Source: Desulfomonilia bacterium (GTDB lineage: Bacteria; Desulfobacterota; Desulfomonilia; UBA1062). From it: a DNA stretch of 64,000 nucleotides. The translations under genes were made by a program, and so were the position numbers. Positions 27,185 to 30,870 of this stretch are shown here, in pieces (position 1 is the first letter of the stretch; the number at the start of each line of letters is the position of its first letter). The DNA is taken from positions 64,001-128,000 of the forward strand of contig JBEKDT010000001.1 of the NCBI GenBank assembly GCA_050014195.1. The letters are read 5' to 3'. Below the pieces are notes generated by a model, which was not told the origin of the DNA, ran no database searches, and saw nothing but the letters and a program-made list of their open reading frames with translations.

Positions 27185-27350
27185 GTAACGCCTTCTCCGC
27201 TCGCCTTCTAAGCGTCCCGCCAGGCTGATAAACCTGTCATGCCGCTTGCAGCGCTTCGATGGCTTCTTTAAGGAAGGAAACAAAGCCTTTCTTTCGGTCG
27301 TTCCTCCCTCTCCCTTCAATCTCAGGTGAAAGGGGGAGGGAGGAAAAATG
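27185..27350 (+). repeat. Conserved double-hairpin upstream repeat R2
   Basis: AAGCGTCCCGCCAGG..CCTGTCATGCCGCTTGCAGCG and TTCCTCCCTCTCCCTTCA..GTGAAAGGGGGAGGGAGGAA. Confidence 0.85.
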
Positions 27351-27388
27351 TTGTTTTCGCGCATTAGACCAAATCAAAGGAGGGCTTT

Positions 27389-27706
27389 ATGAAGCTTTTA
27401 ACAGTTGAGTTGATCAATCAGTTTCCGAGGCTTTACGAGACCGATGGGAAACCGAAGGACCAGGTGAAAATAATCGCCAAGTTCTTTCACCCTATGTCCG
27501 CTGCCACTTGGTATGCAACCGAGTACGATCCGGAGGAAAGGATGTTCTTTGGCTTCGTGAATCTAGGTAATCCCTTATACGCTGAACTGGGATATTTCTC
27601 TCTTGATGAACTTGAAAGTGTAAAGGTGATGGGACTCGGCATCGAGAGAGATCTGCATTTCGGAGAGCATTACTTATCCGAGGTTCTTGAAAGCAAAAAT
27701 ATTTGA
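27389..27706 (+). CDS. DUF2958 family protein
   Basis: [44 protein letters not shown]. Confidence 0.85.
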
Positions 27707-27711
27707 CAACG

Positions 27712-27741
27712 CCGCGTCCGCCGGGTAACCGGCGGATGCGG
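27712..27741 (+). terminator. GC-rich hairpin after DUF2958
   Basis: CCGCGTCCGCCGG-GTAA-CCGGCGGATGCGG. Confidence 0.6.
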
Positions 27742-27804
27742 GCATAAAAGCATAAAGGATGTATACAGAACAATTTAGGCTCAAAGATCTTTCATAAGCA
27801 ATTC

Positions 27805-27960
27805 GCGCCCCTTTCTCTCGCTTTATAAGCACCGCGCCAACAAGAATACGTTGTCACGCTGCTTGCAACGTTTCAGGGGCTTTCTACAAGGAGGCTTCGC
27901 GGTCTTTTATCTCCGATTTTTATCAACCCATGAATCAGGGGTGAACGGGTTGAAAAAAAT
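27805..27960 (+). repeat. Conserved double-hairpin upstream repeat R3
   Basis: TTGTCACGCTGCTTGCAACG core; TTTTTATCAACCC..GTGAACGGGTTGAAAAAA hairpin. Confidence 0.8.
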
Positions 27961-28582
27961 CATGACCTCCGGCAAAGCCGGAGGTTTGTGTAAATCATGA
28001 ACCGCTCAAAGCGGTTTTACCCGATTGCCTTTGTCTCTAGCTGAACATGTTCATCTGCTCAAGTCGCTGGTCTTCTTGCTCCTGCTTCTGGATGTATGAC
28101 CGGACTACTTCCTCGTCCAACCCTACTGTACTCACATAGTAGCCCCTGGCCCAAAATTGCTGACCCGTAAAATTCTTCCTTCGCCCCATGTATGCCCGAG
28201 CTATATGTATCGCACTCTTCCCTTTGATATACCCGATCACCTGGGATACCGAATACTTCGGCGGGATCGATATCAGCATGTGTATATGGTCCTGCTTCAG
28301 ATGTCCCTCGATAACCATGCTCTCCCTCTGTATGGCAAGTTTCCTCATCACCTCACCAAGATACTTCCTCAACTGCCCATACAGCGTCTTCCTTCGATAT
28401 TTCGGTATCCATACAACATGATACTTGCATTCCCACCTGGTGTGCCTTAGACTCTGCTCATCTTCCATGTTTTGCCTCCACTTCTGTAAACTTTGAGCGG
28501 TTCACAGTTAGGAGGCTCTTCAATATTCCCGGAATTGTCAAACTCCGGCGAGTCACCCCGGCAGAGCCGGGGGTTTACCTAA
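27961..28582 (-). mobile_element. IS200/IS605-family element (tnpA only); ends approximate
   Basis: Subterminal hairpins ACCTCCGGCAAAGCCGGAGGT and CCCCGGCAGAGCCGGGG; internal IR TGAACCGCTCAAAG. Confidence 0.85.
28037..28468 (-). CDS. tnpA: IS200-family Y1 (HUH) transposase
   Basis: KYHVVWIPKYRR, DHIHML (HUH), FWARGYYVSTVG, YIQKQ. Confidence 0.95.
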   Translation of the reverse strand: MEDEQSLRHTRWECKYHVVWIPKYRRKTLYGQLRKYLGEVMRKLAIQRESMVIEGHLKQDHIHMLISIPPKYSVSQVIGYIKGKSAIHIARAYMGRRKNFTGQQFWARGYYVSTVGLDEEVVRSYIQKQEQEDQRLEQMNMFS

Positions 28583-28614
28583 AGTAAATTAATTTATTAG
28601 AGGAGGAAAGACCA

Positions 28615-29496
28615 ATGGCAAACGTATTCGAGATCGTGACCGAGCAGATTCTAAAACATTTATGTGCTGGTGTTATCCCCTGGAGAAAACCCTGGACTAG
28701 CAAGATCCGGCTTCCCCTTAACCTGGTGACCGGCAAGAAGTATCGAGGGATCAATGTATGGTTGCTCCTTGCTTCCAGCTATGCCTCTCCTTACTGGCTC
28801 ACCTTCAACCAGGCCAAGACCCTCGGAGGGACCATTAAGAAGGGAGAGAAAAGCTCCATCGTGGTTTTCTGGAACTTCAAAGAAGTGGATGAAGTAAACA
28901 AGGACACCAGCCAACTGGAAAAGAAGAACATCCCCTTCTTAAAGTATTACCGGGTATTCAATGCCCTGCAGTGTGAAGGGATCACCTATCCTGAGCAAGA
29001 GGAAGAGACACACACGGACCCCATAGCCGAAGCTGAGGCTATTATAGAAGGATATAAGGGAAGGCCTGAGATAAAGCACGGATTCACAAAGGCCTGCTAT
29101 AACTCTGTAGAGGATCTGATAAAGATGCCCAATAGGTCTGCATTCGTGAACCAGGAGGAATATTTTAGTGTACTATTCCATGAGGCAACCCACAGCACAG
29201 GCTTAGAAACTCGACTCAACCGGGAGACCTTGACCACACCAGCACCTTTCGGATCGAAGAACTACGCACGGGAAGAGCTTATAGCCGAGATGGGGGCTGC
29301 CTACCTGTGCGCAATCACCGGTATTGCCCATGCCACCATTGAGAACTCAGCGGCATATATCCAAGGGTGGAGGGACTCTATCAGCAAGGATTCAAAGCTC
29401 GTTGTCCTGGCCGCTGCCCAGGCCCAGAAAGCAGTCAACTACATCATGGGTAGGCAAGAAGAAGAGAACCACGAGGATGAAGTAGGGCATGGGTAA
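28615..29496 (+). CDS. ardC: ArdC-like antirestriction / ssDNA-binding protein (DUF1738 plus zincin-like domain)
   Basis: PWRKPW, YRGINVWLL, WLTFNQA, FHEATHSTG, YAREELIAEMGAA. Confidence 0.9.
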   Translation: MANVFEIVTEQILKHLCAGVIPWRKPWTSKIRLPLNLVTGKKYRGINVWLLLASSYASPYWLTFNQAKTLGGTIKKGEKSSIVVFWNFKEVDEVNKDTSQLEKKNIPFLKYYRVFNALQCEGITYPEQEEETHTDPIAEAEAIIEGYKGRPEIKHGFTKACYNSVEDLIKMPNRSAFVNQEEYFSVLFHEATHSTGLETRLNRETLTTPAPFGSKNYAREELIAEMGAAYLCAITGIAHATIENSAAYIQGWRDSISKDSKLVVLAAAQAQKAVNYIMGRQEEENHEDEVGHG

Positions 29497-29508
29497 TTCC
29501 CCTGCTCC

Positions 29509-29534
29509 CGGACGCGGCGCATGCGCCGCGTCCG
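29509..29534. terminator. Perfect palindrome after ardC
   Basis: CGGACGCGGCGCATGCGCCGCGTCCG. Confidence 0.55.
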
Positions 29535-29572
29535 CTTTATGCTGTTAGCTTTAATTCCGGGAAAACAGTGCC

Positions 29573-29742
29573 TAGCCTCTTTCACTTGCTATCAAAGCGT
29601 CCTGCCAACGGAGTTGTCATGCTGCTTGCAACGCTTCAGAGGCATCCAGGATGCCAAGGATTATTCAAGGTGGCTTCGCGACCTTATCATCCTTTTTTCC
29701 TAACCCCTTAAGGGTTTTGTGAAAGGGGTCAGGGAAAAATTG
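29573..29742 (+). repeat. Conserved double-hairpin upstream repeat R4
   Basis: TTGTCATGCTGCTTGCAACG core; TTTTTCCTAACCCCTT..GTGAAAGGGGTCAGGGAAAAA. Confidence 0.85.
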
Positions 29743-29795
29743 GTTTTTTGGGGAGGAACTCCCTGGAGGCCAATAATTTAAAGGGAGGAATATCC

Positions 29796-30572
29796 ATGAA
29801 TGATCTTTTGACTGAAATGAAAACCAGTGATCTCGTTACCGCCTATCAGCAAATGTTGGCCGATCTGGATGAGGCTTATGCAAGGCTCGTCAGGATAAAA
29901 GGACTCTATGAGAAGATCATAGGGGGACGGTTCTTCCCATGCAAGATAGGCCGTTATGATATGGATTTATACGACCCTGAAAGGGATAAAGAGGACTCAA
30001 GGAAGGGTGTACGGATTAACTGCTGGAAGGTCCTCTTTTCACGGATCAAGAACCTTCTTCCGGCCAGAGAAATTTCGAGTATCGAGAAGCAGCTTTCTGA
30101 TGGAAACGTACCCGAATTTACAGAGGAGAATATACACAAGCTGATGTTTTCCTTTATTACCCGGGGGGATGAGTTTAAAAAGCAGATGATTGAAGACGTA
30201 TTCAACTTCTTGAGGCCGCAAAGGACCGGACTCAAGACCAACCAGAGAACTGCCCTGAAAGAAAAAGCCATCATCCCGGGAATAATCGACCATAACAAGT
30301 ATTGGACAACCCTCTCAAGCTACAGAGAAGACAGTTTATGGGACATGGACAAGATATTTCATCTGCTGGATGGTGCAGGTATGCCAAAGTACCCGGGTAA
30401 TCTTCTCACAAGAATCAGAGACGCCATGAGGGAAATGAAATGGCAAACAGAAACAGAATACTTTGAATGCACATGGCATAAAAACGGAAACATGCATATC
30501 CGGTTCAAACGCATGGATTTAGTTTGCGAGATTAACAAGATTGCCGGATGTGACAAGCTGCAGTCAGTATAA
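29796..30572 (+). CDS. DUF4942 family protein
   Basis: PEFTEENI, VFNFLRP..LKTN, KIFHLLDG, YF..WHKNGNMHIRFKRMDLV; GGAGG RBS before ATG 29796. Confidence 0.75.
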   Translation: MNDLLTEMKTSDLVTAYQQMLADLDEAYARLVRIKGLYEKIIGGRFFPCKIGRYDMDLYDPERDKEDSRKGVRINCWKVLFSRIKNLLPAREISSIEKQLSDGNVPEFTEENIHKLMFSFITRGDEFKKQMIEDVFNFLRPQRTGLKTNQRTALKEKAIIPGIIDHNKYWTTLSSYREDSLWDMDKIFHLLDGAGMPKYPGNLLTRIRDAMREMKWQTETEYFECTWHKNGNMHIRFKRMDLVCEINKIAGCDKLQSV

Positions 30573-30580
30573 AATCAAAG

Positions 30581-30614
30581 TTGCCCCCGGGTCTCCATGG
30601 AGACCCGGGGGCAA
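30581..30614. terminator. 34-bp perfect palindrome after DUF4942
   Basis: TTGCCCCCGGGTCTCCATGGAGACCCGGGGGCAA. Confidence 0.65.
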
Positions 30615-30696
30615 GGTCGCCTGAGATCTTATCTCGATTTGTGTTTGAGACAACAGTAGGAAGGACCACTTTGTGGCCCTGATTTCTTTAAATTAT

Positions 30697-30870
30697 CGCC
30701 CCCTTCACTCGCTTCGATAAGCCTCACGCCAATGGAAAAATCCATTGTCATGAGGCTTGCAGCGCTCCAGGGGCTCATGAAATCTCAAGTTTATCAATGG
30801 ATGGCTCCGCAGTCTTTTGAATCATTTTTCTGAAACCCCTCAGGGCTTTGTGAAGGGGTTCAGGAAAAAT
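30697..30870 (+). repeat. Conserved double-hairpin upstream repeat R5
   Basis: AAGCCTCACGCCAATGG..CCATTGTCATGAGGCTTGCAGCG; TTTTTCTGAAACCCCTCAG..GTGAAGGGGTTCAGGAAAAA. Confidence 0.85.

Follow-up and report, generated by a model that had tools for sequence, protein, structure and literature searches.

The question raised by this locus is why one and the same structured element stands in front of gene after gene in the leading region of a mobile element. The window analysed, 64,000 nucleotides (nt) of a Desulfomonilia bacterium (contig JBEKDT010000001.1 of assembly GCA_050014195.1, positions 64,001 to 128,000 of the forward strand; the coordinates used here are those of the window), is occupied by an integrative conjugative element (ICE) adjoining a tRNA gene, with a VirB-type secretion system, a coupling protein, a relaxase of the MobA/MobL-helicase type and a cargo of defence and SOS genes. 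An earlier note, made from the letters alone, had described double-hairpin elements heading the leading-region genes and had proposed them as candidate promoters on single-stranded DNA (ssDNA). The element family is real, conserved in its structure and larger than first described. Tentatively, and from the sequence comparisons given below, each copy is read here as a promoter that would form by fold-back of the template strand and would head anti-defence genes as well as an integrase operon.

A copy is approximately 190 nt long and consists of hairpin 1, a variable middle part and hairpin 3, followed after 15–45 nt by the Shine-Dalgarno sequence and the start codon. Hairpin 1 (about 95 nt) is imperfect. 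Its 5' arm reads GCCCC..CTCGCTT(A/T-rich)AAGCnnCnnGCCAAC and leads into a variable upper stem and loop, while the 3' arm reads GTTGTCAYGnnGCTTGCARCGCT.CRGGGGC. The middle part often contains a small hairpin followed by a T-rich run, and within it TCGGTCGTT or GCRGTCTTT is conserved. The 12–16 bp of hairpin 3 are flanked by T and A runs and enclose the conserved loop ...TTTGTGAA; the second hairpin described before, with a loop ...GTGAA(A/C/G)GGG, occurs in each of the five full copies of the window.

Four of these copies lie at 27178–30869 on the plus strand, where the earlier note had placed the set; a fifth (13036–13238, minus strand) and a degenerate sixth (57866–57968) were found outside that span. 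Exact matches to the core TGTCAYGNNGCTTGCARCG occur at 27235, 27852, 29615 and 30746 (plus strand) and at 13161–13179 (minus strand). These five matches to the common core proposed before (TGTCAYGnnGCTTGCARCG) compare with 0.07 expected by chance, and none of 100 shuffles got to five. In the whole source genome, 15 core matches were obtained when up to one mismatch was allowed, and none with a reversed control pattern. A covariance model built on hairpin 1 (R1) recovers exactly the same 15 copies and, in addition, the degenerate one.

Outside the source genome, none of 400 further genomes from the phylum that were scanned contained an exact match to the core. A core-only scan of 185,579 species genomes yielded mostly chance matches; among the 80 loci fetched from it, two were real according to the model, one in a metagenome-assembled genome (MAG) labelled delta proteobacterium (L084) and one in a MAG labelled Bacteriovoracaceae (L095). 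Both copies precede ardC, and the two MAGs contain 11 and 1 model matches, respectively. A two-arm pattern, more specific than the core alone, led to 119 metagenome stretches. With 80 fetched metagenome loci, L084 and L095, the R1 model gave 92 matches at E ≤ 0.001; the model matches from the fetched loci and the 15 genome copies, collapsed, make up the set of 79 distinct copies referred to in the following. The novelty claimed before is in line with the searches of known families: at the gathering threshold, Rfam recognised only a tRNA in the window and, at E up to 10, gave chance-level matches for the element, and copy A had no match by blastn (word 11) in the 72,556 plasmids of PLSDB.

The pairing of both hairpins is retained despite sequence change, as had been stated. 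Over the 67 distinct rows and 18 pairs counted for hairpin 1, 95% of the cells are paired, and double-sided changes affect 12 pairs and 123 cells. None of 500 shuffles equalled the observed values on four of five measures, and 9 of 500 did so for further pair types; in slid controls, with the partners moved by 1–3 columns, just 27–43% of the cells pair. For hairpin 3, aligned by MAFFT without model fitting (55 rows, 11 pairs), 97.5% of the cells are paired and seven pairs show double changes, with 0 of 500 shuffles reaching the observed values on four of five measures and 23 of 500 for further pair types. The stem variants pointed out previously (CAATGG/CCATTG, CAACATG/CATGTTG and CAGG/CCTG) are all found in the alignments. 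The spacer between GCCA and TGTCA in hairpin 1 varies from 3 to 25 nt, which fits a hairpin, unlike a duplex operator for a dimer.

The two strands of hairpin 1 are not equivalent. In 79 of 79 distinct copies, the strand complementary to the downstream mRNA forms the more stable hairpin, with mean energies of −19.2 kcal/mol for the template and −14.0 kcal/mol for the sense strand (DNA parameters; −34.5 and −26.8 with RNA parameters). This bias stems from conserved positions that do not form Watson-Crick pairs. An invariant C.T (67 of 67 rows) becomes G.A on the template strand, and the recurring C.A mismatch noticed before (50 of 67 distinct rows, T-A in the other 17) becomes G.T; moreover, wobble cells in the variable pairs comprise 26 antisense (A.C) and 11 sense (G.T) cases. 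The sense strand of hairpin 1 in copies A to C folds no better than shuffles (z +0.07, −0.41 and +0.06). Hairpin 3 leans the opposite way, with 51 sense G.T and 10 antisense wobble cells; this lean is visible in the wobble counts only, as by minimum free energy the two strands of hairpin 3 are about even (38 versus 35). A template-strand DNA hairpin followed by a sense-leaning hairpin would fit a transcription start between hairpin 1 and hairpin 3.

The copies are tightly associated with genes. All four plus-strand genes from 27.1 kb up to the origin of transfer (oriT) are preceded by one. Hairpin 1 of copy A (27178–27271, core 27235–27253; 91.3 bits with R1, exact core match) and its hairpin 3 (27301–27345; inverted repeat I9 with 16-bp arms, 94% complementary, loop ...GGTGAAA, with covariation in the family) precede a DUF2958 gene (27389–27706; PF11171, E 1.1e-17). 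Copy B (hairpin 1 at 27795–27888, core 27852–27870, 88.8 bits; hairpin 3 at 27917–27959, from sequence reading and alignment) heads ardC (28615–29496; ArdC-N and zincin metallopeptidase domains, PF08401 and PF18818), with an insertion sequence of the IS200/IS605 type in between. Copy C (hairpin 1 at 29563–29651, core 29615–29633, 80.9 bits; hairpin 3 at 29693–29739, likewise read and aligned) is followed by a DUF4942 gene (29797–30572; PF13708, E 3.1e-34) with an ATG and Shine-Dalgarno sequence at 29797, and copy D (hairpin 1 at 30686–30782, core 30746–30764, 82.4 bits; hairpin 3 at 30825–30869, by sequence reading) by a gene for a 171-aa protein (30905–31420), which has no Pfam family above cut-off and whose homologues follow copies at other loci. 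Terminator-like hairpins are present 3' of ardC and of the DUF4942 gene.

The same gene families recur throughout the 79 distinct copies, the next open reading frame (ORF) of which was sorted by N-terminal words and named after the Pfam matches of the window's own genes. The next ORF encodes ArdC in 17 copies, DUF2958 in 10, DUF4942 in 5, the 171-aa protein without family in 7, a xis-like helix-turn-helix (HTH) protein in 13 and a long integrase-like protein in 11; four copies precede other ORFs, and in 12 none was called. The distance from the core to a start codon with Shine-Dalgarno sequence is 120–199 nt in 65 of the 67 called ORFs. Subtypes of the element follow the family of the downstream gene. 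The cassette content varies among the ICEs of the source genome. A selfish repeat resembling a miniature inverted-repeat transposable element was considered as well and was ruled out by the gene-tracking subtypes together with the fixed orientation.

In five ICEs of the genome, the gene order is the same: anti-defence genes, a small gene, an intergenic region and traA, and every anti-defence copy points to oriT and traA. In the window, the small gene (31439–31693, minus strand), which we take to be TraD-like, has no Pfam family and is kept beside traA in four ICEs of the genome; traA itself (31940–34864, plus strand) encodes a relaxase-helicase with MobA/MobL and AAA_30 domains (PF03389, E 1.6e-71). 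Alignment of the five regions upstream of traA revealed an invariant GAAAGGCGCAC beside an inverted repeat with covarying arms, regarded as the putative oriT core (31872–31909, minus strand). In minus-strand reading, the repeat comes before GTGCGCCTTTC, and a conserved GTGCGCC motif is located 3' of the repeat. An inverted repeat followed by GTGCGCCTTTC presumably corresponds to the layout of the nick region of the RSF1010/Ti type, and as a rule the relaxase gene enters the recipient last. From this layout and this rule, the minus strand is likely the transferred strand (T-strand), entering from about 31.87 kb downwards and serving as template of the four plus-strand genes, as the earlier note had supposed; hairpin 1 is also the more stable on the template strand. 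TraA-type oriT sites are stated to be RSF1010-like (PMC4700958). By eye, 11 of 14 positions of the oriT inverted repeat itself (minus strand 31886–31905, ATGTCGCTTGCGAC) agree with the element core (ATGCTGCTTGCAAC). The insertion between hairpin 3 of copy B and ardC (27998–28504, minus strand; Y1 transposase at 28037–28468, Y1_Tnp, E 5e-37; flanked by the 14-nt inverted repeat I16) has the sense strand of its transposase on the strand that we infer to be the T-strand. Elements of the IS200/IS605 type insert into single-stranded DNA.

The statement that the element heads every leading-region gene is correct for the four genes of the window, but its distribution is not confined to them, and a further subtype heads xis/int genes on the opposite strand. 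In the window, this copy (hairpin 1 at 13143–13238, minus strand, core 13161–13179, 91.6 bits; hairpin 3 at 13036–13082, minus strand, read from the sequence and aligned) precedes a probable integrase gene (11690–12997, minus strand; weak Phage_int_SAM_5 only, E 0.005) adjoining the tRNA at 11581–11654. The xis/int copy of a second ICE of the genome heads genes for an 82-aa HTH protein and a Phage_integrase protein (E 2e-17). The xis/int subtype is divergent from the array in all three ICEs of the genome having both types, in nine of nine metagenome contigs with copies on both strands and at three places of the delta proteobacterium MAG. In the latter, an ardC-type and a xis/int-type copy stand back to back, 48 nt apart (G402:C8:3566-3803, L255 and L259), which leaves no room for separate upstream promoters.

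If the element is a fold-back promoter, each copy would be a self-contained expression cassette for a gene needed by the ICE directly after transfer. Hairpin 1 would form on the unpaired template DNA strand and serve as the promoter, transcription would proceed down the stem from the loop towards the base and enter the gene, and hairpin 3 as well as the conserved TCGGTCGTT/GCRGTCTTT would then belong to the 5' leader of the mRNA. The four anti-defence genes would have the transferred strand as their template, so that they could be read before the complementary strand is synthesised, as at Frpo. At 27876–27909, and at the equivalent place in other copies, a small hairpin begins at the basal GGGG of hairpin 1, with GCGGTCTTTT after it; it was flagged as terminator-like. 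Such a hairpin might serve as a 5'-terminal stem, an attenuator or a primer stop. The motif TCGGTCGTT/GCRGTCTTT is retained even in the distant high-GC variants L161 and L196. The high-GC metagenome variants L161, L196 and L199 also retain both arm motifs, the C.T and C.A mismatches and TCGGTCG, and L161 has the loop TTTGTGA.

Several points weigh against a fold-back promoter. The xis/int copies lie on the opposite strand, so the T-strand cannot be their template; with 13 xis-like and 11 long integrase-like ORFs among the 79, T-strand ssDNA cannot be the whole story. It is mainly this subtype that keeps our confidence on the lower side of the midpoint. These copies need another route, or the element is not specific for ssDNA. 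They might be used late, by extrusion from supercoiled duplex after second-strand synthesis, integration needing a duplex anyway; a retained strand in the donor is possible as well, as is a role of the sense hairpin in priming. The stem accommodates no sigma-70 −35/−10 pair, and downstream of it a conserved −10 box is lacking. The energy of hairpin 1 is modest (−14 to −24 kcal/mol); on the template strand of the five window copies, DNA z-scores range from −1.2 to −6.7, and two copies (−1.2 and −1.5) do no better than about 10% of the shuffles. Being thermodynamically modest alone, the hairpin draws its support from covariation and not from energy. The hairpin is also far shorter and weaker than those of the Frpo/ssi type, for which a search threshold below −75 kcal/mol is given in PMC12672017. 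As to the counts, the 79 copies are kin and not independent trials, and the metagenome pattern fixed GCCA, TGTCA and CTTGCA, so that invariance and pairing are partly built in; the hairpin 1 alignment was fitted to the model, towards which alignment A3 is biased. GCCA and TGTCA are still invariant in the sets obtained without that pattern, namely the 15 genome copies, found via the 3' arm alone, and ten printed copies from the two MAGs, found via the model.

The promoter type was considered for two sigma factors. A generic sigma-70 scan gave nine sites in 5.1 kb compared to 6.3 expected, none of them within an element. Using TTGCAR as −35 box with a −10 box at 16–18 nt was tried and discarded, the best −10 being just 2/6 in 44 of 79 copies; a −10 box in the A/T-rich bulge of the non-template arm was discarded as well, with A at position 2 in 43 of 79 and T at position 6 in 3 of 79. 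By reasoning, a sigma-70 layout in the stem with 17-nt spacing would land in the variable loop. The view of the earlier note that no clear −10 box exists accordingly stands with respect to sigma-70.

A closer resemblance exists to sigma-54 promoters. The invariant 3' arm, TGTCAYG-N4-TTGCA, differs from the consensus TGGCAYG-N4-TTGCW at one specified position, with GT instead of the −24 GG in 79 of 79 copies. Read as its reverse complement (YTGGCRnG-N4-TT, then an A/T-rich stretch), the 5' arm does supply TGGC with its GG, and at the GC position this complement has G in only 7 and C in 12 of 79 copies. Only the high-GC variants L161, L196 and L199 pair fully at GCTTGCA, their 5' arm complement amounting to the full TGGC-N8-TTGC. 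Apart from these three variants, a duplex sigma-54 promoter, with GG at −24 and GC at −12 at fixed spacing in one duplex, was not found in the element. When the template strand is folded, the complement of the 5' arm takes the place of a non-template strand running towards the gene, so that one arm provides GG and the other the complement of TTGCA. It is conceivable, though unlikely, that hairpin 1 holds a sigma-54 promoter split between its arms, which would be completed by fold-back of the template strand alone and would fire on single-stranded or extruded DNA only. In that case, the non-template arm would bring the −24 TGGC and the template arm the TTGCA complement including the flipped −12 T, positions from about −11 to −4 would be mostly unpaired, and both duplex readings would be crippled, the rightward one without one G of GG and the leftward one without GC.

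Heteroduplexes with an altered non-template and a native template strand at −12/−11 are reported to bind the holoenzyme well, with the template −12 T flipped into a pocket (PMC10083551); this T corresponds here to the complement of the invariant A. The folded element resembles such 'early-melted' heteroduplexes, as described in PMC10083551 and PMC7057263, in that the template arm keeps the −12 region and the non-template arm is degenerate there. In one report, altering the −24 element reduced wild-type activity to about 1.4% (PMC12096077), a value in keeping with a silent duplex form. In the host, rpoN encodes the canonical RpoN box ARRTVAKYR, there are about 25 sigma-54 activators (27 Sigma54_activat matches), and among its candidate sigma-54 sites TGGCAYG-N4-TTGCT is found in 7, while TGGCAY-N5-TTGC fits 46. 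By rough arithmetic, a sigma-54 match of this kind would arise by chance within 95 nt with a probability of about 0.0015, a figure uncorrected for the many motifs open to comparison. Against this reading, the folded form has a G.A mismatch and, at GC itself, a bulge or mismatches, and the −12 HTH contacts the non-template strand according to PMC7057263. In the same source, only activator-bypass mutants transcribe from a pre-opened bubble, by implication leaving wild-type sigma-54 in need of an activator, and Pfam (Sigma54_activat) found none in the ICE part of the window. If true, this would be the first ssDNA promoter for the enhancer-dependent sigma factor, and the question of how its need for an activator is satisfied would then arise.

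A fold-back promoter of whichever sigma factor has to be weighed against other functions of the element. The copies might be ordinary double-stranded promoters of a common regulon, with zygotic induction depending on whether an ICE repressor or a special factor occurs in the new host and with the palindrome acting as operator or cruciform. Such a regulon would explain the same element before xis/int on the other strand, repressor-controlled establishment genes including ardC are described for p576 (PMC6294495), and a sigma-70-like site (TTGGCT-16-TAAAAT) lies directly upstream of copy A. We nevertheless consider it unlikely. The upper stem and the loop differ between copies in sequence as well as in length, and the changes are compensatory, which a duplex-binding dimer would not tolerate, and the uniform strand bias of hairpin 1 is invisible to duplex DNA; the lack of sigma-70 boxes conserved inside the element, as shown by the −10 scores above, speaks against it as well, and no repressor candidate was identified. 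Even less probable is that the whole element is an RNA leader, transcribed from further upstream and acting in mRNA stability, processing, antitermination or translation control, like EGeRS of pLS20. The sense lean of hairpin 3 in the wobble counts and the structured regions described upstream of establishment genes in pLS20 plasmids (PMC8708921) would agree with a leader, whereas hairpin 1 is worse in the mRNA sense in all 79 copies, RNA parameters included, its sense strand in copies A to C does not surpass shuffles, the back-to-back copies leave no space for an upstream promoter, and no Rfam family matches. We regard a leader as very improbable.

An ssDNA signal with another job, such as complementary-strand priming (similar to sso/ssi), protection from single-strand binding protein or nucleases, or strand-specific recombination shuffling the cassettes, would account for the strand specificity and the invariant mismatches of hairpin 1, which are like those of ssDNA-recognised sites. 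The cassette content, unlike among the ICEs of the genome, and the divergent recombinase gene beside the array, as in integrons, can be counted in its favour, and Frpo makes primers too, as reported in PMC12672017. The fixed distance and co-orientation to the start codon and the subtypes tracking the gene point to expression instead, and for a recombination site CAAC/GTTG is found at the top of the stem and not at the base as in attC. Such a signal is rated as rather improbable, slightly more so than a duplex regulon. Of the readings considered, a fold-back promoter of a type not yet catalogued is the most likely, as judged from the sequence and the placement of the element.

Among known systems, the CUP repeats of IncN plasmids are longer duplex promoters under repressor control. 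They are similar in that each leading-region gene has its promoter on a module repeated upstream, and are set apart from the element by this general description, the sequence comparison being the PLSDB search without match. In integrons, attC lies 3' of each cassette ORF as an imperfect hairpin of the bottom strand, with the core sites R''/R' at its base; the element, in contrast, is located 5' of each ORF with a Shine-Dalgarno sequence. Conserved repeats upstream of several establishment genes including ardC are also known as EGeRS1/2 and Reg576 operators of pLS20 and p576, which, as described, act on double-stranded DNA or RNA (PMC8708921, PMC6294495). The authors of PMC8708921 reject an ssDNA promoter for EGeRS since the transferred strand is the non-template strand, whereas here it would be the template for the anti-defence genes.

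The closest parallel is provided by the Frpo/ssi promoters of classes 1–3 (F, ColIb-P9 and pESBL), long sigma-70 hairpins of IncF/IncI plasmids (PMC11541004, PMC12672017). In the accounts of these two papers, a hairpin of the transferred strand is located upstream of leading-region anti-defence genes, one element per operon, with the T-strand as template. The anti-defence copies of the five ICEs would fit this arrangement, given the nick strand proposed above, and the xis/int subtype does not. Differences include the missing sequence likeness (blastn, PLSDB, 72,556 plasmids), a stem in which no sigma-70 −35/−10 pair is rebuilt, the additional placement before xis/int on the non-transferred strand, and the occurrence in ICEs with a MobA/MobL relaxase in environmental bacteria. 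A literature search revealed no description of this element, nor of a sigma-54 or ICE ssDNA promoter, and the experimentally shown fold-back promoters on incoming ssDNA presented in PMC11541004 and PMC12672017 are from enterobacterial IncF/IncI plasmids only. If the reading as a fold-back promoter is true, the family would carry the ssDNA-promoter principle to ICEs of anaerobic and environmental bacteria, with another architecture and possibly another sigma factor. With about 95 nt, invariant mismatches and dozens of natural variants, the element is a compact test object. Its two opposite placements, before anti-defence genes with the T-strand as template and before xis/int on the other strand, would constitute a natural experiment on early versus late timing in establishment, and a covariance model would mark leading regions and candidate anti-defence genes (the 171-aa protein, DUF2958 and DUF4942) in metagenomes.

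The degenerate hairpin 1 at 57866–57968 (plus strand, 20.4 bits with R1, E 0.0058) stands before the C-terminal fragment of an integrase (57928–58212). Together with this tyrosine recombinase fragment (57866–58212 in all) and situated beside a pilin gene, it is probably the remnant of another xis/int module. The cargo of the ICE between int and the leading region (13735–26990) encodes DUF3800, an HNH protein, a pentapeptide-ion-channel fusion, a receiver domain and a 1737-aa SF1 helicase with a Top1 zinc ribbon. Past traA (34876–45321 and 59221–60477), SRAP, UmuD/UmuC-like genes, AbiGi, a 1428-aa STAND-like NTPase and a Shedu protein with SduA_C are encoded.

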